Source: an uncultured Verrucomicrobiales bacterium
Lineage (GTDB): Bacteria; Verrucomicrobiota; Verrucomicrobiia; Verrucomicrobiales; DEV007
Assembly (NCBI GenBank): GCA_938091905.1
Contig: CALKOM010000014.1
Span: forward strand, 1 to 64,000
Direction of reading: 5' to 3'
Length of the DNA stretch: 64,000 nt
Shown here in pieces: positions 1,790 to 63,407 of this stretch. The notes beneath the pieces were generated by a model that saw nothing but the letters and a program-made list of their open reading frames with translations, ran no database searches and was not told where the DNA came from. Both the position numbers and the translations under genes were made by a program. The first letter of the stretch is position 1. Every line of letters starts with the position of its first letter.

Positions 1790-2365
1790 ATGACTCAAGC
1801 TACCGCCAGCCACACCGATTACCGTAATTATGTCGAAGAGCGCCTGATGAAGACGCGCACCATCATGATCTACGGCGGCATCAATCAAGCTGTGGCTCAG
1901 GATGTTTCAGAAAAACTGATCATCCTCTCAGAAGAGTCAAACGAAGACATCACGATCTACCTGAATTCCCAAGGCGGGCACGTGGAAGCGGGCGATACAA
2001 TTTATGACATGATTCAGCATGTCACCCCGACCATCCGCGTTGTCGGCACAGGTTGGGTCGCTAGCGCAGGGGCGCTCATCTACTCGGCACCAAAGAAAGA
2101 ATGCCGCTTCGCCCTTCCTAACACACGCTTCATGCTCCACCAGCCTAGTGGTGGTGTCGGCGGCACGGCCTCAGATGTGAAGATCGAGGTGGAAGAACTC
2201 ATCAAGATGCGCAAGCGCTTGAACCAGATCTTTGCTGACCAAACCGGTCAACCGTTGGAGCGCGTGACTGAAGACAGTGATCGTAACTTTTGGATGTCAG
2301 CGCAAGAAGCCGTCGACTATGGTCTCGCCGGATCCATCGTGAAGAGCGCTTCGGAGCTGAGCTAG
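1790..2365 (+). CDS. clpP: ATP-dependent Clp protease proteolytic subunit
   Basis: YLNSQGG, VASAG (catalytic Ser), MLHQP (His), DRNFWMSAQEAVDYGL. Start at ATG 1790. Confidence 0.95.
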   Translation: MTQATASHTDYRNYVEERLMKTRTIMIYGGINQAVAQDVSEKLIILSEESNEDITIYLNSQGGHVEAGDTIYDMIQHVTPTIRVVGTGWVASAGALIYSAPKKECRFALPNTRFMLHQPSGGVGGTASDVKIEVEELIKMRKRLNQIFADQTGQPLERVTEDSDRNFWMSAQEAVDYGLAGSIVKSASELS

Positions 2366-2367
2366 TC

Positions 2368-3027
2368 ATGAACTTCCTCGCTCCCGGGAGCGATGGCCAG
2401 GTCCGCACTAAGATCTGTGGGCTTCGCAGAATCGGAGACCTGGCATTCTGTCAGGAGCAAAGCATTGATGCGGTTGGTCTCAATTTCTGGCCCAAGTCCA
2501 AACGCTATCTTGAGCCCGCACTAGCAGCGACCTGGCTTGGGCAAATGCCAAAGACACCCACTCGGGTTGGTGTCTTTGTCAACGAGCCGACAAGCAGCAT
2601 TCAACGTCTGTTGGAAAAGGGCATCATTGAGATCGCTCAACTTCATGGCGATGAAACCCCTGAAGACTGCGCTAAACTAAAAATGGCAGGCTTTCCTGTC
2701 ATCAAGGCCATCGGGGTAAAAGACTCCTCGTCCTTGGCTCAACTCAGTGCGTTCGACGTGGGCGGCATTGTGCTAGATGCTTTCTGCCCTGGCGACTACG
2801 GCGGCTCTGGCAAGACCTTCAATTGGGAACTCGCTCTTGAAGCTCGCGAGATCCTCGGAGATACGCCACTCATTCTTTCAGGCGGGCTTGTGTCTGCAAA
2901 CGTGGCCGAAGCCATCCAGAAAGTCAGACCCCATGCAGTCGATGTGGCAAGCGGCGTCGAAAGCGCCCCTGGCGTGAAATCTAAGGAGATGATCGCCGAC
3001 TTTCTTCAAACGGTGCGCTCGGCTTGA
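2368..3027 (+). CDS. trpF: Phosphoribosylanthranilate isomerase
   Basis: TKICGL, VGVFVN, QLHGDE, GGSGKTFNW, SGGL, VDVASGVESAPG.K. Confidence 0.95.
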   Translation: MNFLAPGSDGQVRTKICGLRRIGDLAFCQEQSIDAVGLNFWPKSKRYLEPALAATWLGQMPKTPTRVGVFVNEPTSSIQRLLEKGIIEIAQLHGDETPEDCAKLKMAGFPVIKAIGVKDSSSLAQLSAFDVGGIVLDAFCPGDYGGSGKTFNWELALEAREILGDTPLILSGGLVSANVAEAIQKVRPHAVDVASGVESAPGVKSKEMIADFLQTVRSA

Positions 3028-22923: not shown

Positions 22924-23277
22924 TCACCCCGATGCTCGGCGGAAAAGCGCTCGCACCCGAGCAATGAGCTCTTTCATGCTGATGGGCTTCACCAAATAAT
23001 CATCTGCGTCCGTCTCCAGTCCAGCCACGCGATCATCTACCATGCCTTTGGCTGTCAACATCAGAATGGAGGGCTTACAACTACGACGCCGCAACTTCAG
23101 ACACACTCTGTAGCAATCCACCCCGGGCATCATCACGTCGAATAGAATCAGATTACAAGCGCGCTCCAAGCCAAGTTGACCATCTTCAGCTGTGGCCACA
23201 CGAGAACCATGCCCCCGCAAGGCCTCTGCTAGAGCCATCCTTATGGCCAGTTCGTCATCGATGATGAGTAGACTAGT
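22924..23277 (-). pseudogene. OmpR-family response regulator remnant (receiver only; start codon and DNA-binding domain lost)
   Basis: LLIIDDELAIRMALAEAL...LILFDVMMPG..ILMLTAKG..DRVAGL...ADDYLVKP..MKELIARVRALFRR, then stop. Confidence 0.8.
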
Positions 23278-23619: not shown

Positions 23620-25193
23620 CTATAACACCGCCCCACTCAAGTATGGGCAGCGGGAATGACCCACTGAAGACGACATCGATGATCTCCTTCCGGGTGGTGC
23701 GACAGATTCTCGCACGTTGCCAGTCGACACTCTAATTATTCGGTCGTTGTGTCTTAGGAGTATTGGCCCAATCAGCAAGATGGCAGCCAAGCTGGGTGTC
23801 TCGCCAGAACCTGTCGCCAACAGTGTTTGATAGAGTATCTGCGGAAGGCATAGTGTGCTCGCTCCCTGCTTCTTCCATTCAAGATAACGCAATCGCATCG
23901 TATGGGCGCGCATAGGTCTACCCTGAACTTCGGCCCCAGGATCGGCCCCACGTGCGATCAGCTCCTGAGCCTCATCCCACTTCTTATCTTGCAGAGCATG
24001 GAACATGCGGTGTCTTCTCCTGATTATCACCGGCATCGATTTCTGCAACGGCCTCTATCAATGCTGGCACTAACTCGAAAGCCCCACCACGAACAGCTGC
24101 ATGTAGAACAGTCCCGCAAAACCGGTCCGTCATGGTTAGATCTGTTCGCGAAACAAGCTGGATGGAAAACTTGAAACGCTCACTGTCTGCAAGCGCTTAA
24201 TGAAATGCTGAGGGATATTGTCCCACAACAGCACTTACATCCGCGCCTTGCAGTGAGAGCAAAGCAAAGATCTCGTTTTGATCGCGGTCGATAGCCCAGA
24301 TTAGCGGTGTCGGTTCTCCTTCCGCAGCGACGAGATTCAGATTAGCATCCCGCTCATGCAACAGCTTCACAAAGGGATGTCCATCGCGAAGGACGGCAGG
24401 ATCTAACATCATTATTCTCCTTTCGCGTTTCTTGCCGTCAAAGCGAAACAAATCGTTCTTGATCTCGTATATGCCATTTGGAGTAGAATTCCTGTTCAAC
24501 AACAGCCTACCGACACTCTGGAACCCACTCACAATCGCCTCTCCTAGAGGAGAGCCGCACTCGATATCCACGCCTGACGTTATTAGATATTCACATGCTT
24601 TTAGGCGCCCATACTGCGCAGCGATCGAGAGAGCTGTTTCGTGATCGATATCCACGCCATTCTTGAGAAGAAACTCTAGAACCCGCAAGTGTCCGTTCCT
24701 AGCAGCTCGATGGACGGGAGCGTAACCTTCTTCCACGGCAGAAATCAGAACTGGGCTGTCTGAGATGATCTTGCTCAGACGCTCACTCTCCCTCGCTTCT
24801 CCCTCGCTTCTTCATCAAGCAAATCGAGCGCCGTTTCTACTGAAGAAGCTTTCTCTCACAAGGCGAGTAGATTCTCTCGCCTGAGCCGGGCAAGCGAATC
24901 ATGCGCGGGAAATTCGGCAAGCTACTGCAGATAAAGCTTCACTGCCTCCTTAGGGCGGTTCTGCTTACGCCGGACTTCGACGAGCCAGAAGAGCGCTGTA
25001 GCGGCGAACTGGCGATGGGAGTGGTAAGTCTCCAACAGCTTCTCATAGCCCGGGGCCGGTTGCGTCAGGCCTTGAGAGGCTTCCTCCTCAATTAGAGCCT
25101 CACGAAGAAGTTTCTCCAAGTCATCTCTGCGAGATTCTTGAGCAGAAAGGCTAAAGTAACAAGAACCGAAAGAATGAGGATCGATGGCTTCAT
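23620..25193 (-). pseudogene. Fragmented secreted TPR/ankyrin-repeat protein
   Basis: ATG 25193 gives MKPSILILSVLVTLA, then a frameshift to LLREALIEEEA...AATALF..., an in-frame stop, and ankyrin pieces (GYAPVHRAARNGHLRVLEFLL; TPLIWAI; ELIARGADP) in different frames. Confidence 0.75.
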
Positions 25194-25279
25194 TATACCA
25201 AGATAGCACCTGCCGCTCCCGCATTGCGTCATGGATGCGGCATATCGACATCTGTCAATCTTGTGCTAGTTCTGGTCCC

Positions 25280-26161
25280 TTGAAAAGATTCGTTCTCCCC
25301 GCTATCATCGTCACGCTCGTCCCCCTGCTCTTTGTCGAACCTCACGTCGCCCGTTGGCTTGAGTCGAACCGGACGACAAAGCGCCATGGTGAGATCATTC
25401 ACGAGATCACATCGACATACTCTCACATCAGGGTACGCGAACGAGGCAATGTACGTTGCCTGACATTCGTCGATCCAAATGGCCGCGAAGAACGCCAATC
25501 GGCAATCGACATAAAGAATCCTCATGCCATGCAGTTGGGCTACACCACCTCATTCTTTGCCTCGCTGCTATTTCGAGAACCTCAAGAGCGCGTGCTCATC
25601 GTTGGTCTGGGAGGAGGCGGCATGGTTCGCTTTCTGAACCATGCTTTTCCCGAAACGATGGTCGAAGCAGTGGAGATTGACCGCGTGGTCGTCGGCGTCG
25701 CCAAGAACTACTTTGGTACTATGGAAGGCCCCATGACAAAAATTCATGTGGCGGACGCCTTTGATTATCTCAAAGAACCTCACGGCCCCTTTGATGCTCT
25801 TTACATGGATGCCTTCCTCAAGCCATCAGTCGCTTCAGGTCTGGAGAATGTCACCCAGCGACTGAAAACCCTAGAGTTCCTTCAGAGCCTGCGCAGGCAA
25901 CTAAATCCTGGAGGCATCGTTGCATTTAATCTACACCAATACGCCTCCGCTACCCAGGACGATCTCGACGCCCTTAAGACGGCGTTCCCGCAGGTCTATC
26001 TCTTTGGCGTACCACGGACAGGTAATCTGATAGCCATCTGTACTATTGACCGCCAACGACTTACTACAGAGACTTTGGCAGAGCGAGCAACCAATCTAGA
26101 AACAAAGCTAGATGTCGACCTACCCTGGCAAAGCTTCGTCAATGAGCTACACCACCTTTAA
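25280..26161 (+). CDS. Spermidine-synthase-like SAM-dependent methyltransferase with N-terminal membrane anchor
   Basis: RVLIVGLGGG, VEAVEID, IHVADAFDYL, FDALYMDAF, LNPGGIVAFN. Probable TTG start at 25280. Confidence 0.85.
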   Translation: MKRFVLPAIIVTLVPLLFVEPHVARWLESNRTTKRHGEIIHEITSTYSHIRVRERGNVRCLTFVDPNGREERQSAIDIKNPHAMQLGYTTSFFASLLFREPQERVLIVGLGGGGMVRFLNHAFPETMVEAVEIDRVVVGVAKNYFGTMEGPMTKIHVADAFDYLKEPHGPFDALYMDAFLKPSVASGLENVTQRLKTLEFLQSLRRQLNPGGIVAFNLHQYASATQDDLDALKTAFPQVYLFGVPRTGNLIAICTIDRQRLTTETLAERATNLETKLDVDLPWQSFVNELHHL

Positions 26162-26334
26162 CGAAAGATTTCCGTTGATCCCGTCAATGCCCCCTTCTAG
26201 CATTCCACAGTGGCCTAGGGAGGTGATTGTAAAATTACTTGGGAGGGGGGGAATACTCCACTTAATGTGCGGTCGCCCCTCAGCTCACACTTTCCTGTCC
26301 CGGCATTGGGGCTACGAGGGTGTAAACCTACCTC

Positions 26335-27330
26335 ATGAATCGCCGAATTCTTCTAGCTTGCCCTTACCCCCTAGATTCTCCCCGCGGAAACAGTGTCTCC
26401 GCCAATCGCATCATTGGGATCCTCGAAGGGCTTGGCCACACTGTCATTCCGATATCTGGCCGAACTTCCTCTGAAGGCTCAGGAGATATTCTTATCGCGC
26501 TGCACGCAAGAAAGAGCGCTACGGCCATCGAAAGCTTTCACGCGAGGCATCCGCAACGCCCTGTCATCATCTTGCTCACAGGCTCCGATCTCTATGCCGA
26601 TCTAGAAGGTCCTCCAGAGAACCGCACAACCGTGCAGCAAACCCTTGCGCTCGCAACCCGACTGGTCGTTGCGCAAGGCGCCTCGATCACAGACATCCCA
26701 GAAACCTTTCGTGACAAAGCCCAGGTAGTTCCCAAGTCACCGCTAACTAATGTTCCCACTCGCATGAAGAACCGGTCACCAGGGCTCCTGAACGTCGTCC
26801 TTTCCAGTCACCTGCGCCCAGCCAAAGCACCGCTTCTTGTGCTTGAATCGCTAGCTCTTTTACCGGAGAGCATCGCCGTTCAGGTTGACCACTATGGACA
26901 TGCAGAGGATCCGGATCTAGGCCGCTATGCCCTCAATGCTTCTAAAGTCCCCAGAACTAAGTACTACTGGCATGGCAACAAGCCCCACAAAGAGATGTTA
27001 GCCACCTTTGCTCAAGCAGATCTCCTGTTAAACACATCTCGAGTCGAGGGCGGCGCCAATACCCTATGCGAGGCCATTCAAATGGGCCTACCCTGCCTTG
27101 CAACATCCATCCCACCCAACGCTGGCATGCTAGGTGAAGACTACCCTGGGCTCTTTCCAATGGATGATGCTCAGGCTCTAGCAATGTTGATAGAACGAAG
27201 CACTTCAGATGCCGATTTCCTCAACCAACTCACCTTAAAGGTTGAAATGAGGGCCCCTTTCTTTACAAGGCAGGCTGAAGCGGAAGCTTGGCAGAAAGTG
27301 ATCGAGGAAGCATCGTCCCTGTCTACGTAG
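26335..27330 (+). CDS. senB: SenB-like selenosugar synthase (TIGR04348-type glycosyltransferase)
   Basis: RGNSVSA.R, IALHARKSA, ILLTGSDLY, RLVV.Q, HLRPAKAP, SRVEGGAN..CEA, NAGMLGEDYPGLF match the SenB family signature. Confidence 0.8.
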   Translation: MNRRILLACPYPLDSPRGNSVSANRIIGILEGLGHTVIPISGRTSSEGSGDILIALHARKSATAIESFHARHPQRPVIILLTGSDLYADLEGPPENRTTVQQTLALATRLVVAQGASITDIPETFRDKAQVVPKSPLTNVPTRMKNRSPGLLNVVLSSHLRPAKAPLLVLESLALLPESIAVQVDHYGHAEDPDLGRYALNASKVPRTKYYWHGNKPHKEMLATFAQADLLLNTSRVEGGANTLCEAIQMGLPCLATSIPPNAGMLGEDYPGLFPMDDAQALAMLIERSTSDADFLNQLTLKVEMRAPFFTRQAEAEAWQKVIEEASSLST

Positions 27331-27453: not shown

Positions 27454-28239
27454 CTATCGCCTCACCCGGACCTCATCCGCGCTCGCCAGTACGCACCTCT
27501 TTCCTCCGCCAACGTCCAAGACGAGCTCACCTTCCGACCCAAGGTCAATCGCAGTGCCCTCAATAATCTTCACGCCAAGGCGGGCTCGTACCGGTTTGCC
27601 TAACAAGTAATGAGCCTTCTTCAACTCCGCCAATTGCTTTGCAAACGCCTCAGCTGGCGAACTCAGGATATCCGAGAGGCGATCAAGAATCCCGGCAGCA
27701 AAACCTACGCGGTCAATCCAGGTTCCCGTCACCTCCCGCAGCGACGTGGCAAGGTCTCGAATCTCCTCGGGCAATTCATCCTGTTGGACATTCACATTTA
27801 CCCCAACACCAATCACGGCAGAAGCTTCTCCACCACCTTGCATCTTCGTTTCAGCAAGTATTCCTGACACCTTACGATCCCCCAGATACAGGTCATTGGG
27901 CCACTTCACGAGGGGAGACGCTGGCGGATAGCCCTCAAGCGCTCGCTTCAAAGCCAACGCCGTCAGGTGCGTCAGCCTTCCCCAGTCACGTAGCGGCCAA
28001 GCTGGCCGAACCCGGCAAGAGAAGAGGAGATTGCTCTCGGGCGGCCCTCCAAACCAAACGTTTCCGCGTCGCCCACGACCCGCCGTTTGCCGTTCAGCAA
28101 ACAGCACCGTGCCAACAGTTTCTGAACCAACTGGCAAGTCGAGCACCGCATCGTTCGTCGAGGCCACCTCATCCGTCACGTGAATACTCCAGGCATCTTC
28201 ACGCTCCAGAGCAGCACCAACACTTTCCGCATCAAGCAC
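27454..28239 (-). CDS. birA: Biotin--protein ligase
   Basis: [35 protein letters not shown]. Probable GTG start overlapping the trpG stop. Confidence 0.93.
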
Positions 28240-28813
28240 TGCCTGGACTTGGTAAGTCGAGGAAGTTCTGCAAAAGCTGCTTCCCATTCTCAGTCAGAAT
28301 AGACTCTGGATGAAACTGCAAACCATGAATCGGATACTCACGATGCTGCAAACCCATGATCTCATTCTCAGCCGTTTCCGCCGTGATCTTGAGCACCTCC
28401 GGAAAGGTCTCTCGTTTCACAATAAGAGAGTGATAACGGGTCGCCTCAAATGAGTCAGGCAGACCCTCAAAGATACTCTGCCCTTTATGGAGAATGGGGG
28501 ACGTCTTGCCATGCATGAGACGCTCGGCGCGAATGACATCCCCGCCAAAGACCTGACCGATGCATTGATGTCCAAGACAGACACCGAGAATCGGAATCGT
28601 CTTTCCAAAGGCACGCACCACTTCACAACTAATACCGGCTTCTGCTGGTGTGCAGGGACCAGGGGAAATACAGATCTTGTCTGGTGCAAGCTCACGGATT
28701 TCATCGATGGTGATCTCGTCATTCCGATAGACTTTGAGATCGGCACCGAGCTCACCAAAGTACTGCACCAAGTTGTAGGTGAACGAATCGTAATTATCGA
28801 TTACTAACAACAT
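28232..28813 (-). CDS. trpG: Anthranilate synthase component II (glutamine amidotransferase)
   Basis: [36 protein letters not shown]; adjacent to trpE. Confidence 0.93.
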
Positions 28814-28819
28814 CTTTGA

Positions 28820-30376
28820 TTAGACTCCTTTAGAAAGGTTCTTGGCATACTCGATCGCACGGATCATGCCCATGGCTTTGTTCACGGTCTCTTCGTACTC
28901 ATTCTCAGGCACCGAATCTGCCACCACACCTGCACCCGCTTGGACGTAGGCTTTGCCATTCTTGAGAACACACGTGCGAAGGGCAATGCACGAGTCGAGG
29001 TTCCCATCGAAACCGAAATAACCCACGGCCCCGGAGTATGCACAACGTTTGTTCTTCTCTAGCTCATTGATGATCTGCATGGCACGCACCTTCGGCGAAC
29101 CAGAAACAGTACCCGCAGGGAAAGTCGCCGCCATGACATCATAGACGGTCTTGTCTTCGTGAAGTTGACCAACCACGTTTGAGACGATGTGCATGACGTG
29201 GCTGTAACGCTCAATGACCATGAGATCCGTCACGTTCACCGTGTCATAGTTCGCCACACGCCCCACATCATTTCGCGCAAGGTCCACGAGCATCACGTGT
29301 TCCGCACACTCTTTGGGATCCCCTAACAAATCCTGCTCCAAAGCGCAGTCCTCTTCTTCAGACTTGCCACGCCAACGCGTGCCAGCAAGAGGACGAATTT
29401 CAATCTTGCGGTCGATGGATCTCACATGCACTTCAGGAGAACTTCCAACCAAGGAGAAGCCATCTGGAAACTGAAGGCAGAACATGTAGGGCGAGGGATT
29501 CACATGTCGCAGTGCCCGGTAAAGATCGATCGGAGGTTCTGTGAAATCGACGGAGAATCTCTGTGACGGCACCACCTGAAAGATATCACCCGCACGAATG
29601 TATTCCTTCGCCTTCTCCACCATTGCACAATACTCCTCCTTAGTCGTGTTGCTAGACGGTTCCACTCGGTCCGGCTTGGCATAAGTGATGACCGGCTTTG
29701 CATGGATAGGCTGTGACAACTTATCAATTAACTTATCGATCCGTTGCCGAGCAGCAGCATAGGCTTCTTCAGCGTTGGCAAATTCGTCAGTGACTACGTT
29801 GGCCACGACTTGGATCCGCCGATACTTGTGATCAAAGATGAGCACATCATTCGCCACCATAAAGAGCATGTCAGGGACACCGAGAATATCCTCAGGTGGG
29901 TCGGGCACCGTCGGCTCAAAGTAACGGACCGCATCATAACTCAAGTAGCCAACTGCCCCACCGTAGAACACCGGCAAGCCGTTAGAATCGGCCGGGCGAT
30001 AAGCGGCCATCAACACCTCCAGCTCACGCAAGGGATCCCCTTCCGCTTGGTGCGTTTCCACGGTGCCAGTCTGCACGTTCGTCAGCGTCACCTCGAGTCC
30101 GCGACACTCGAAGATCTGACGCGGCTCGCTCCCAAGAAAGGAATAGCGTCCCGCGTCTTCACGAGTTTCCGCAGATTCAAAGAGGAACGCGTAGTCCCCA
30201 TCGTTGATCTTTCGAAACGCCGAAAGAGGCGTTTCATAATCGGCTGCCAATTCAGTGTACGTGGGCACAAGATTCCCGGCAGCGAATTGCGCAGCAAAGG
30301 TCTCGAAATCAGGCTTGAGAGGCGTCTCGGGCACAGTGAATTCAGTTTGGAGAGCGAAACTCGTTTCGCAAGCCAT
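28820..30376 (-). CDS. trpE: Anthranilate synthase component I
   Basis: FLFES, GDIFQVV, NPSPYM, SSPE, AGT, EHVMLVDLARND, PAGTVSGSPK, QAGAG. Start approximate. Confidence 0.95.
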   Translation of the reverse strand: MACETSFALQTEFTVPETPLKPDFETFAAQFAAGNLVPTYTELAADYETPLSAFRKINDGDYAFLFESAETREDAGRYSFLGSEPRQIFECRGLEVTLTNVQTGTVETHQAEGDPLRELEVLMAAYRPADSNGLPVFYGGAVGYLSYDAVRYFEPTVPDPPEDILGVPDMLFMVANDVLIFDHKYRRIQVVANVVTDEFANAEEAYAAARQRIDKLIDKLSQPIHAKPVITYAKPDRVEPSSNTTKEEYCAMVEKAKEYIRAGDIFQVVPSQRFSVDFTEPPIDLYRALRHVNPSPYMFCLQFPDGFSLVGSSPEVHVRSIDRKIEIRPLAGTRWRGKSEEEDCALEQDLLGDPKECAEHVMLVDLARNDVGRVANYDTVNVTDLMVIERYSHVMHIVSNVVGQLHEDKTVYDVMAATFPAGTVSGSPKVRAMQIINELEKNKRCAYSGAVGYFGFDGNLDSCIALRTCVLKNGKAYVQAGAGVVADSVPENEYEETVNKAMGMIRAIEYAKNLSKGV

Positions 30377-30416
30377 CACTTGGCAATCTTCCGAGCCGAC
30401 ACTACCCTTTGCTGCC

Positions 30417-31277
30417 ATGTCGGACGAGGCTGATTCCGCTCCTACCCACCCACCGGCTAACACAGCGTTAGCCGCTCGCTACGGATCTGCTCGAGAAGCT
30501 TTTGATCATGCGCTGGTCATCCTCGCCATGAATTTGCCTTACTGGCATGTCCACCAATCTGGCAGCCACGAACTCTACGTTGAGGAAGAGCGACTCGGAC
30601 AAGTCGCAGATGAATTGCGTGCCTATCGCCAAGAACAGGCCTCCTGGCGGCCCGTAGATCCAGACGCTGGAGTGGCCGACTATCCAGCTAGCTTCTACGT
30701 TCCCTATGTCGCGACCCTAATCCTGACGTTATCCTTCATTCTGCAGAACGCCTACGCGCCATACTATGCCACTATTGGAAGGATGGACACCCTGGGGTTC
30801 CTCTCTCGAAACGAGTGGTGGCGCCCGCTCACCGCGCTGTTCCTTCATGCAGATGTTCCTCATGTTCTTGGAAACATCGTCTTCGGCCTGTGGTACGGCA
30901 CGTTGGTCAATCGCACCTATGGCACTCTGCTCGGCTGGAGCCTCATGTTGGCCAGTGGAATCTTGGGAAACACGCTCGTCGCTCTGCATCGGTTTCCGGC
31001 ATCCCATTTCTCGATTGGAGCTTCCACAGCTGTCTTTGGAGCTTTGGGTCTTCTCGTCGCAGAGGGGTTCGCTCATCGCTGGCGACAGCGTTTCAGTATG
31101 CAGGTAGGCCAGCTCCTCATTCCGATGGTTGCTGGGGGGCTCCTCCTGGGCTGGACCGGCGGGTTTCACGATCCCCAGATCGACGGCCTGGCTCATGTGG
31201 GAGGATTTCTCTCAGGTTTCATGTTAGGTCTGGCCGCTTCTTTCCTTCCGAGGAAAGAAGCAGGAGTTAGCAAGTGA
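30417..31277 (+). CDS. Rhomboid family intramembrane serine protease
   Basis: WWRPLTALFLH, HVLGN, GAS (catalytic Ser), AHVGG (His). Confidence 0.9.
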   Translation: MSDEADSAPTHPPANTALAARYGSAREAFDHALVILAMNLPYWHVHQSGSHELYVEEERLGQVADELRAYRQEQASWRPVDPDAGVADYPASFYVPYVATLILTLSFILQNAYAPYYATIGRMDTLGFLSRNEWWRPLTALFLHADVPHVLGNIVFGLWYGTLVNRTYGTLLGWSLMLASGILGNTLVALHRFPASHFSIGASTAVFGALGLLVAEGFAHRWRQRFSMQVGQLLIPMVAGGLLLGWTGGFHDPQIDGLAHVGGFLSGFMLGLAASFLPRKEAGVSK

Positions 31278-61148: not shown

Positions 61149-63407
61149 ATGGTCAGAGCGGCCCTCCTGCTTCTCTTGCTCCACGCAACGGTGCTCTCAA
61201 TAGTGAGTGGTGCTTCCGCTTGGAAAGCAGACGTCCTCCCTTTCTTTGAGAACTATTGCTACGACTGCCACGGTGACGGCACGGAGAAAGGCGACCTTTC
61301 CCTGAATGGCTACCTCACGGAAGCCTCCGTTCTTAAGGACATCAAGGTCTGGGATACGATCAAGTATCAGGTGGAGAACTGGGTGATGCCGCCACCGAAT
61401 AAAGCACAGCCAACACCGACAGAGCGTAAGATGGTCGCCACCTACTTGGAGAATCTGCTCTACCCCTGCGACTGCGACATTCCTGATCCTGGCCGCACTA
61501 CCATCAATCGACTCAATCGCGAACAATACGATGCGCGACCTCGTCGGCATCGATGTCAGACCCACAGACATTTTCCCAGCAGATGATTCAGGCTATGGCT
61601 TTGACAACATCGGCGACGTGCTCACGATTCCGCCCATCCTCATGGAACGGTATCTTATCGGAGCTGATAAGGTCCTCGATGAAGCGATCTTCACGGGGCC
61701 ACCAGAGTCAATCACTAGGATCCACGATGCTTTAGTCATGATGGGAGGTAAACGCTCCGAACAAACCGCACGTGTGTTAGATAAGCTAGGAACAGTAAAA
61801 GTGAGGCACCAGTTTAGACATCAGGGCGACTATAAGATCCGGGTGCGCTTGGGAATGGATAGATCGTCGAACGAGGGACTGAAAACGACGCTCTCCCTCG
61901 ACAAGAAGGTCGTCCACACGGCATCCGTGACCGCTAGCAAGCTTCGCCCAGAAGCGATTGAGACCACCGTGACGGCAAAAAAGGGAGTTCGGAGGTGATC
62001 ATAACTCTCAAAGGGAATCCCGGTAGGAATCGGCTCTTTGTGACGCCAATCGAGATAGAAGGACCATTCCAACCAAAGGCCGATCGGCTACCGCCGTCGC
62101 ACACCGCCATCTTTGGCTAAGTTCCTGGCAACCGTGATCTCAGAACAGCGGAACGTACCATTCGGAGATTCGGTCATCGCGCATTCCGTCGCCCTATCAA
62201 GCCTGATGAAGTCAAGCGGTTGGTAAAGTTCGTTCAGCTCAGTCTGAACCGCGGCGACGGCTTCGAGATGGGAATCAAACAAGCACTCAGAGCTATGCTC
62301 GTTTCGCCACACTTTCTGTTTCGAATCGAATGGCTGCCCGAGCCTAACAATCCCAAACGTGTTGAAGCCGTCACTGAATACGCTCTCGCTTCCCGTCTGT
62401 CTTACTTTCTATGGAGCAGCATGCCGGACAACGAGTTGCTGTCGCTCGCTTTCAAAGGTGAACTCCGCAAGCAACTCAAGCCACAAATCATGCGCATGCT
62501 GGCTGATCCAAAAGCGAACGAGCTTGCACGCAACTTCGGCGGTCAGTGGCTTGAGCCCCGCAACCTACAGGTTCACGAAGCAAATGGGGAGAAGTTTCCT
62601 GAATTTACCCCCAAATTGCGAGACGCCATGGCTCACGAGACGGAGGAGTTCTTTCTACACGTCATGCGTAAGAATCGGCCAGTGACCGAGTTTTTGACTG
62701 CAGACCACACCTTCGTCAACGAACCACTGGAAAAATATTACGATTTGAAGGGAGTCTCCGGACAGGATTTCCAACGTGTTTCTCTAGCAGGCACTCCGAG
62801 GCGCGGCGTGCTCACTCACGCCAGCGTACTCACGGTGACCTCCGATCCCACGCGCACGTCACCGGTGAAACGCGGCAAGTGGATACTAAACAATCCGTTA
62901 GTCACCTCACCACCACCTCCTCCACCGAACGTCCCCGAGCTAGAAGAGAATGACTAAGCCGAACTTAAGGGCAGCTTGCAAGCACGAATGGAGAAATACA
63001 GAGATATTCCTGGGTGCGCGTCATGCCATCGCTTAATAGATCCGTTAGGCTTTGGCCTTGAGCACTTCGGCCCACTCGGCGCCTGGCGAGACAAAGATGG
63101 CGCCTATTCCATCGAGGCAACGGGCGAGCTTGTTTCTGGGCAGCAGTTCGAGGGTTCAGATGAACTCATTGGCATCCTCGATACCAAGAAGCGTGATCTC
63201 TATTACAAATGCCTGGCTCACAAACTACTCACCTACGCTCTTGCACGAGGCCTCGAATACTACGATCGCTGCGCAGTCGATGAAATTCAGGGTAAATTGG
63301 GGAAAGACAGCCGCTTCAACACCGTGGTAATGGCGATTGTAGAGAGCATCCCGTTTCAGAAACGTCGGGGCGATGGATATGTCGAGCCAGATCGAAGCAA
63401 GCGGTAG
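61149..63407 (+). pseudogene. Fragmented planctomycete-type cytochrome c / DUF1587-1595-1592-1588-1585 protein
   Basis: CYDCH, RLNREQY, FPADDSGYGFDN, LVSPHFLFR, LASRLSYFLWSSMPD, TSPVKRGKW, CASCH spread over several frames. In-frame TAA at 62955. Confidence 0.88.

Follow-up and report, generated by a model that had tools for sequence, protein, structure and literature searches.

A predicted selenophosphate glycosyltransferase with possibly altered sugar specificity from a Verrucomicrobial sister clan of SenB

We analysed a 64,000-nucleotide stretch of DNA from an uncultured Verrucomicrobiales bacterium (assembly GCA_938091905.1, contig CALKOM010000014.1; hereafter the window, meaning the whole stretch) with respect to a gene at 26335..27330, the product of which resembles SenB, the enzyme that makes 1-seleno-sugars from a uridine diphosphate (UDP)-sugar and selenophosphate. 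Profile scores and trees indicate that the window protein belongs to a hitherto undescribed sister clan of SenB, which is Verrucomicrobial as far as organism names show. The reading we prefer, to which we give a probability of roughly 0.45, is that the protein may be a UDP-sugar:selenophosphate glycosyltransferase with altered sugar specificity: the residues attributed to catalysis are kept, and those that contact the sugar are replaced. An earlier note made from the DNA letters (the original prediction) had called the gene SenB-like and had proposed that, with no senA or selD nearby, its selenosugar could feed a different product, for example an Se-methylated selenosugar formed with the help of the gene upstream.

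Results

A SenB relative with a predicted SenB fold

The gene under study is the following.

26335..27330, + strand: SenB-like GT-B glycosyltransferase of the non-Q131 (mostly K131) clan, 331 amino acids (aa); placed by NCBIfam, the PDB, a structural model and an alignment

The 331-aa protein aligns with positions 1-309 of the 310-position NCBIfam model of SenB, TIGR04348 (E 1e-80), and scores 271.1 bits against a curated equivalog cutoff of 300 bits. The original prediction had proposed this scoring, with failure at the SenB model to count against it; the match proved to be full length, but the score lies below the cutoff and is formally such a failure. Pfam assigned generic GT4 domains only, and the top protein match, at 95% identity, is named "glycosyltransferase [Verrucomicrobiales bacterium]".

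A sequence search of the PDB with the window protein returned SenB and nothing else (all four distinct sequences, E 9e-45 to 3.7e-42), at 33-34% identity to the solved enzymes. Moreover, an AlphaFold model computed from a 21-sequence alignment (predicted local distance difference test score, pLDDT, 94.1) superimposed on 8jjn, 8jjt, 8rz3 and 8jjq with template modelling (TM) scores of 0.89-0.92 and root-mean-square deviations of 2.0-2.3 Å. When the model was used for a structure search, SenB came out on top (TM 0.83-0.92), followed by other GT-B glycosyltransferases at E 1e-13. Records in the ESM Atlas gave the same family names again and nothing further.

Sequence and model together confirm that 26335..27330 encodes a real SenB relative, predicted to adopt the SenB GT-B fold, and the SenB-like identity first suggested for it holds. 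The protein shares this fold, its length and the lack of extra domains with SenB of Variovorax paradoxus (VpSenB; 8jjn, 8jjq, 8jjt, 8rz3, 8fbx) and with RsSenB (8k5u). It differs from both in scoring below the TIGR04348 cutoff (271 vs 300 bits), in belonging to a separate clan and in having no senA or selD nearby. A search for longer forms of the window protein gave one weak, unrelated glycosyltransferase (E 2e-4). The possibility of a pseudogene or a chance open reading frame (ORF) was considered and rejected, the ORF being intact, related at 45-95% identity to 10 clusters and modelled with high confidence.

The window protein groups with a separate clan

The 12 nearest relatives (P0001-P0011 and P0029; 37-95% identity) scored 222.6-283.1 bits with TIGR04348, compared with 346-430 bits for 15 other tested homologs and 340-441 bits for the canonical SenB proteins checked from genome loci. 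An IQ-TREE quick tree (101 rows) placed the window protein and all 12 of these relatives in one monophyletic group, with a Shimodaira-Hasegawa-like approximate likelihood ratio (SH-aLRT) support of 97 and a stem of 0.62. The canonical rows nearest to the clan in this tree were L077, L013 and L054 (support 86), all of them loci without SenA.

An exhaustive search of 1.84 billion cluster representatives retrieved 402 proteins at E<=1e-30, and the best 150 were aligned with the window protein. At the position of VpSenB Q131, lysine was found in 28 of these 151 sequences, P, T, S, A, R or E in 11 more and glutamine in the others. The TIGR04348 score followed this residue: 22 of 24 non-Q representatives fell below 300 bits, and 11 of 11 Q-type ones reached at least 302.5. 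A 103-row tree without an outgroup united 42 of 43 non-Q rows in one clan (support 98, branch 0.064), with P0366 alone outside, and a FastTree of 179 rows gave the identical non-Q/Q split, again with support 98. Only this unrooted split is used for the claim of a clan. Every clan member that carries an organism name (6/6) belongs to Verrucomicrobiota.

Our searches of the open-access literature brought up neither a K131-type SenB clan nor SenB in Verrucomicrobia, and the available portions of the papers on SenB structure and pathway make no mention of such a clan.

Catalytic residues are kept and sugar contacts are replaced

Residues of VpSenB correspond to those of the window protein as follows.

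Kept: N20=N19, H58=H57, T83=T82, D86=D85, R155=R161, K158=K164, E231=E238, E239=E246
Changed: T23 to S22, T85 to S84, Q131 to K134, V157 to A163, H235 to N242

According to the available text of PMC10891094, the K158A and E239A variants of VpSenB have lost nearly all activity, K158 being the residue that cleaves the selenium-phosphorus (Se-P) bond. The same text has N20, T23 and E231 holding the sugar, with N20 and T23 at its C5' hydroxymethyl group, Q131 and H235 contacting C4', and N20, T83 and T85 lining the selenophosphate pocket. Thr23 and Gln131 are independently listed among the contacts to N-acetylglucosamine (GlcNAc) in the accessible part of PMC11237966.

We compared these positions in an alignment of 12 clan rows with 87 canonical SenB rows. 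N20, D86, R155, K158, E231 and E239 are invariant throughout (12/12 and 87/87), and all six are present in the window protein; T83 is retained in 12/12 and H58 in 11/12 clan rows. Since the residues for UDP binding, for the phospho-acceptor and for Se-P cleavage are kept, this machinery appears to be intact.

The sugar contacts behave differently. Position 131 is Q in 87/87 canonical rows and K in 11/12 clan rows, position 23 is T in 86/87 and S in 11/12, and position 85 is T in 87/87 and S in 11/12. At the two contacts T23 and Q131, the window protein carries S22 and K134. The change at H235 is non-discriminating because most canonical sequences have N there as well. The window protein also has a 4-residue insertion after the D86 helix relative to SenB. 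As judged from the alignment, the clan has a remodelled sugar pocket at the C4'-C6' edge, and the replacement of Q131 by K, T23 by S and T85 by S makes the choice of UDP-sugar, not the chalcogen chemistry, the most likely point of difference. A lysine near C4'/C6' would suit an acidic substituent on the UDP-sugar.

These data also bear on a different explanation, which we regard as unlikely: the clan may have left selenium chemistry and consist of GT-B enzymes with another small anionic acceptor or a non-selenium product, its likeness to SenB being a matter of ancestry. Sub-cutoff scores across nearly the whole clan, the long stem (0.62), the replacement of a glutamine that is universal in canonical rows, the lack of a selenium gene in the 64 kb (see below) and the absence of SenA from all three of the nearest canonical loci would fit such a departure. 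However, the lysine assigned to Se-P cleavage is invariant in the clan, the selenophosphate-pocket residues N20, H58, T83 and D86 are kept, and we know of no alternative phospho-chalcogen donor in cells. In the available text of a bioRxiv preprint by Kayrouz et al., SenC made no thiophosphate.

Absence of senA and selD is common at canonical senB loci

No SelD, SenA, EgtD or selenate-binding protein was detected in the window by Pfam on its 58 ORFs or by tblastn at E<=1e-6, and relaxing tblastn to E<=5 for SelD, SenA and EgtD gave chance-level matches of at most 25 bits. Neither an ovsA nor an NHISS homolog was found in the 64 kb, and searches of the window with Rfam (0 matches) and for tRNA (0 genes) offered no tRNA-Sec or riboswitch clue. 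The absence of SenA and SelD noted originally is thus borne out, and extends to EgtD.

Its value as evidence was judged against canonical SenB. A profile search of GTDB species genomes, with 10-kb flanks, listed 80 loci, all of them canonical and none from the clan, with SenB proteins at 34-42% identity to the window protein. The tblastn references were taken from those loci and verified against NCBIfam, and SenA was counted at >=100 bits. Of the 80 listed loci, 54 had SenA, 17 SelD, 16 both and 25 neither; where each flank spanned 5 kb or more (43 loci), SenA was present in 28, SelD in 10 and neither in 15. Solitary canonical senB genes occur in blocks by lineage, with 13 loci from Thiobacillaceae/Hydrogenophilaceae and several from Planctomycetota, and the genes next to them are heterogeneous. 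The available text of the preprint by Kayrouz et al. counts 827 complete egtB-tigr04348-selD cassettes against 2,353 TIGR04348 genes, and that of PMC11030361 describes ovs genes that lie apart on the chromosome in some cases.

Linkage to senA and to selD (senC), which the window lacks, is therefore a weak criterion, and the missing genes are uninformative because 25 of the 80 listed canonical loci have neither. The argument that their absence signals a different product does not survive this comparison (neither gene in 25/80 loci, and in 15/43 with wide flanks). A solitary senB-like gene is common and by itself should not be read as a new pathway.

The same comparison bears on a second explanation, also improbable in our judgement, namely that the gene is an ordinary SenB ortholog that has drifted and serves a scattered selenoneine or ovoselenol pathway, with senA or ovsA, senC and egtD elsewhere and an unrelated housekeeping gene as its neighbour. 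Scattered pathways are documented in the available text of PMC11030361, solitary canonical senB is frequent (25 of the 80 listed loci), and the catalytic residues are intact. On the other hand, the replaced residues are sugar contacts that are otherwise invariant (Q131 in 87/87 canonical rows) or nearly so (T23 in 86/87). Their changes are fixed across at least 42 representatives of the clan, which argues for a change of specificity rather than drift. Moreover, no fusion or linkage of a clan member with SenA or EgtD was observed, gene context being available for one locus, that of the window.

Several canonical loci deserve description in their own right. The 13 Thiobacillaceae/Hydrogenophilaceae loci (L002, L005, L019, L031, L035, L036, L047, L048, L049, L055, L057, L073 and L076) form a clade of canonical SenB, with neither SenA nor SelD in their flanks; SenB of L047 scores 441 bits. 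Members of an RlmB/TrmH-like RNA methyltransferase family, represented by L055:9180-9956, were detected in 11 loci; in L055 the gene sits immediately before senB, and in L047 senB is followed by a YcaO gene. In a Planctomycetota locus (L077:10001-11902), an EgtD homolog (176 bits) begins 22 nucleotides (nt) after senB, with no SenA within 10 kb.

The upstream gene encodes a spermidine-synthase-fold transferase

The gene upstream of the SenB-like gene and the spacer between the two are as follows.

25235..26161, + strand: spermidine-synthase-fold transferase of the S-adenosylmethionine (SAM)-binding type, 308 aa from the ATG at 25235
25289..25339, + strand: hydrophobic N-terminal segment of this transferase, residues 19-35 of the 308-aa form, mean Kyte-Doolittle value 2.41
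26162..26334, + strand: spacer between the transferase gene and the ATG of the SenB-like gene, 173 nt, with no terminator-like hairpin, sigma-70-like promoter or Rfam match

Two other starts are available for the transferase, one at 25184 giving the longest ORF (325 aa) and a TTG at 25280 giving 293 aa; the ATG at 25235 is backed by 308-aa homologs, and the TTG is the start used in the ESM Atlas record and in the original prediction. The strong hydrophobicity of residues 19-35 makes it probable that the protein is attached to the membrane, with this segment as membrane anchor or signal anchor. The model of the transferase has a helix at residues 16-32, and an equivalent hydrophobic segment is present in the aligned homologs (25 sequences).

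Pfam Spermine_synth (PF01564) matches the transferase with 40.5 bits, above its cutoff of 22.9, and the fold is that of a spermidine synthase, so the label of spermidine-synthase-like originally given to this gene is upheld. Scores with the aminopropyltransferase models of NCBIfam are below their cutoffs (NF003380, 119.3 vs 304; NF002010, 51.6 vs 260), as are those with TIGR00417 (41.8 vs 249.55) and NF037959 (31 vs 40). The best PDB match by sequence is the C-terminal methyltransferase domain of human METTL13 (5wcj, E 2.4e-18), which is also the best match by fold (E 2.2e-14, TMt 0.77, 29% identity), although over the Rossmann part only and with spermidine synthases scoring nearly equal. Spermidine synthases come next in the fold search and match the transferase from end to end, sharing with it both the N-terminal beta domain and the Rossmann domain; the hydrophobic N-terminal segment is an addition of the transferase.

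The glycine loop of the transferase, GLGGGGM, contains no acidic residue. Relative to Arabidopsis SPDS2, the Asp of the GGGDGG motif is replaced by Gly, and in the DSSD motif the first Asp is kept and the second is replaced by Leu; at the loop position of the GGGDGG Asp, an acidic residue is lacking in all 25 aligned homologs. In the available text of PMC4356361, Asp127, Asp196 and Asp199 of PfSpdS bind the aminopropyl and putrescine amines, and the last two are called invariant; we infer that the Gly and Leu sites correspond to these Asp positions. Because two of the three acidic residues of aminopropyltransferases are missing, a SAM-dependent methyltransferase is the more likely assignment, with methyl transfer favoured over aminopropyl transfer. 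The transferase has no match to Methyltransf_33 or TIGR03438 (EgtD). Those relatives of this fold that have been characterised use amines as substrates.

Linkage to the SenB-like gene was seen in one subclade

The two genes are co-oriented on the + strand and are preceded by an ankyrin-repeat gene and followed by a biotin ligase gene, both on the opposite strand. Co-orientation was correctly noted in the original prediction, but the gap, given there as 174 base pairs (bp), is 173 nt. Between 24700 and 27700 a search for operon signals found no terminator-like site and two promoter-like sites, both at chance level and neither of them in the gap.

Linkage in the clan was assessed by a proxy, in which clusters of SenB-like proteins and of the transferase were sought on contigs of identical size in bp, using the best 120 of 778 transferase matches. 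Same-size contigs were found for P0001/P0121 (310,102 bp), P0002/P0250 (23,950), P0003/P0124 (11,572), P0005/P0125 (3,660), P0006/P0143 (32,106) and P0246/P0248 (197,557), the last pair coming from the same two clusters as P0006/P0143. Further members of the P0003 and P0124 clusters lie on contigs of 29,820 and 29,822 bp. The genes of P0005 and P0125 must be adjacent because the contig they share is 3,660 bp long. The pairing covers all members of the window's 7-row subclade on contigs longer than 2.1 kb and reaches down to 48% identity for the SenB-like protein and 53% for the transferase. For P0007, P0008, P0010, P0011, P0029 and ten further clan representatives, no shared contig was seen among the best 120 of the 778 transferase matches. 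Thus, the pairing proposed originally is conserved within the window's subclade but was not seen beyond it among these 120 matches.

The transferase family itself is far wider. Most of its 778 matches have no SenB-like gene on the same contig, and its Atlas cluster has 326 members, mostly from Verrucomicrobiota. Among the best 120 transferase clusters, 38 are on contigs of at least 20 kb, one of them 6.4 Mb long; two of the 38 share a contig size with a SenB-like match directly and two more through cluster members, one of these latter two to within 2 bp. By tblastn, no homolog of the transferase was found in any of the 80 listed canonical SenB loci.

A methyltransferase beside SenB has precedents. 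The ovs cluster (senB, senC, ovsA and OvsM; ovoselenol), as described in the available text of PMC11030361, combines SenB with a SAM-dependent methyltransferase; OvsM, the ovoselenol N-pi-methyltransferase, however, methylates 5-selenohistidine and not a sugar, whereas the neighbour in the window has the spermidine-synthase fold. SenB is also joined to a methyltransferase in SenB-EgtD fusions (P0280 and P0342, with a partial form in P0383), in which the partner EgtD belongs to the histidine N-alpha-methyltransferase family and makes hercynine for SenA; the window's transferase has no match to the EgtD domain, Methyltransf_33.

Long forms of canonical SenB were recorded as follows. P0280 and P0342 (643-649 aa) are the EgtD fusions, P0383 being a partial form of the same, and L015 has an apparent 666-aa SenB-EgtD reading frame. 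P0363 (568 aa) joins SenB to a DNA_alkylation repair domain, P0268 (461 aa) joins it to PilZ, and P0271 has an N-terminal FGE-sulfatase (SenA-type) fragment. The exhaustive search found no SenB fusion with a spermidine-synthase domain.

Se-methyl selenosugars are products of mammalian selenium excretion, and a product of this type had been proposed for the window. Our searches of the open-access literature yielded no report of selenosugar methylation by a bacterial enzyme or of a bacterial gene for it. A two-gene module, in which the transferase would add a methyl group to the selenosugar formed by the SenB-like enzyme, or to a compound derived from it, giving for example an Se-methyl selenosugar, seems to us quite improbable. 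The gene arrangement would agree with it (co-orientation, 173 nt, opposite-strand flanks and no terminator-like hairpin in between), as would the same-size contigs that pair P0001, P0002, P0003, P0005 and P0006 with transferase clusters, the 3,660-bp one forcing adjacency. Methyl transfer is plausible as well, since the transferase lacks the acidic residues that select decarboxylated SAM. These points are set against the width of the transferase family, the few pairings among its 38 clusters on long contigs and its absence from the 80 listed canonical loci. The fusion partners of SenB are EgtD, a SenA fragment, DNA_alkylation and PilZ, never the spermidine-synthase fold, and the closest characterised relatives of the transferase (the METTL13 C-terminal domain and the aminopropyltransferases) act on amines. 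The lack of shared contigs outside the subclade, among the best 120 of 778 matches, is a further but weak point.

Se-methylation by the neighbour is therefore not upheld: the transferase family is wide, its relatives act on amines, and the methyltransferase partners seen with SenB are EgtD, in fusions, and OvsM, neither of this fold. The linkage is real within one subclade, but a shared pathway explains it no better than gene order inherited next to a widespread gene of housekeeping type. Functional coupling of the transferase to the SenB-like enzyme is unsupported, the link between them being synteny in the window's subclade.

Other features of the window

Anthranilate synthase components I and II (trpE and trpG) are encoded at 28232..30463 (-), directly upstream of the biotin-protein ligase gene at 27454..28287 (-) and with a 56-nt overlap; the ligase gene converges on the SenB-like gene, and trpF is distant (2290..3027). 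At 22924..23238 (-), a response-regulator receiver ORF of 104 aa matches its Pfam profile from position 14 and has no output domain; it may be truncated or have a mis-called start. The window contains PSCyt/PSD-domain genes, and at 61149..63407 (+) a gene of this planctomycete-type cytochrome family with PSCyt1, PSD3, PSD5, PSD4, PSCyt3 and PSD2 domains is spread over four ORFs (61149..61586, 61531..61998, 62220..62957 and 62976..63407); the frame shifts among the first three ORFs, and a TAA in frame at 62955..62957 separates the third from the fourth. This split gene is probably a pseudogene or an assembly error.

Discussion

We propose that the window protein is a candidate UDP-sugar:selenophosphate glycosyltransferase in which the specificity for the sugar has changed. 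An enzyme of this clan would still join a UDP-sugar to selenophosphate and release a 1-seleno-sugar. Its donor would differ from that of SenB and might be, for example, a UDP-sugar whose C4-C6 edge is acidic or modified in some other way. The genes for selenophosphate supply (selD) and for any enzyme that consumes the product would lie outside these 64 kb, as they commonly do for canonical senB. The original suggestion of a product beyond those already known is plausible because the protein belongs to a separate clan with sub-cutoff scores and replaced sugar-contact residues; the reason first given, the missing neighbours, carries no such weight.

Several observations weigh against this proposal. 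The score of the window protein (271.1 vs 300 bits) leaves it outside strict membership of the SenB equivalog, and its closest relatives carry only the label "glycosyltransferase" in NCBI. The 64 kb hold no selenium-metabolism gene, and no clan member has an independent link to selenium, the context examined being that of the window locus; the search for selD covered the 64-kb window. The root of the trees is conflicting: two remote GT4 outgroups (L051) attach inside canonical SenB in the 101-row tree, whereas in the 179-row tree the same outgroups attach beside a long non-Q row, a warning of long-branch effects. Finally, the idea of an altered donor is drawn, from sequence, out of two or three substitutions and the contacts described for VpSenB.

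To our knowledge, the two known selenium-specific small-molecule pathways are those that lead to selenoneine and ovoselenol, with SenB as the first enzyme in each; the SenB biochemistry and structures that we know of all come from canonical, mostly proteobacterial, enzymes. A further-reaching view, for which we see a small chance, is that chalcogen glycosyltransferases come in two kinds, the second being the non-Q131 clan, restricted to Verrucomicrobiota. This clan would make a different selenosugar, which the transferase, probably membrane-anchored, would modify further in the window's lineage. The lysine at position 131 and S22, which leaves more room, would accommodate a UDP-sugar that is acidic or carries another modification. 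If true, this view would add a third selenium-specific small-molecule route to those of selenoneine and ovoselenol, one that does not depend on SenA- or OvsA-type enzymes. A clan that keeps the Se-P-cleaving lysine, rebuilds the sugar pocket and falls outside the annotation model is a lead to a different selenosugar or acceptor.

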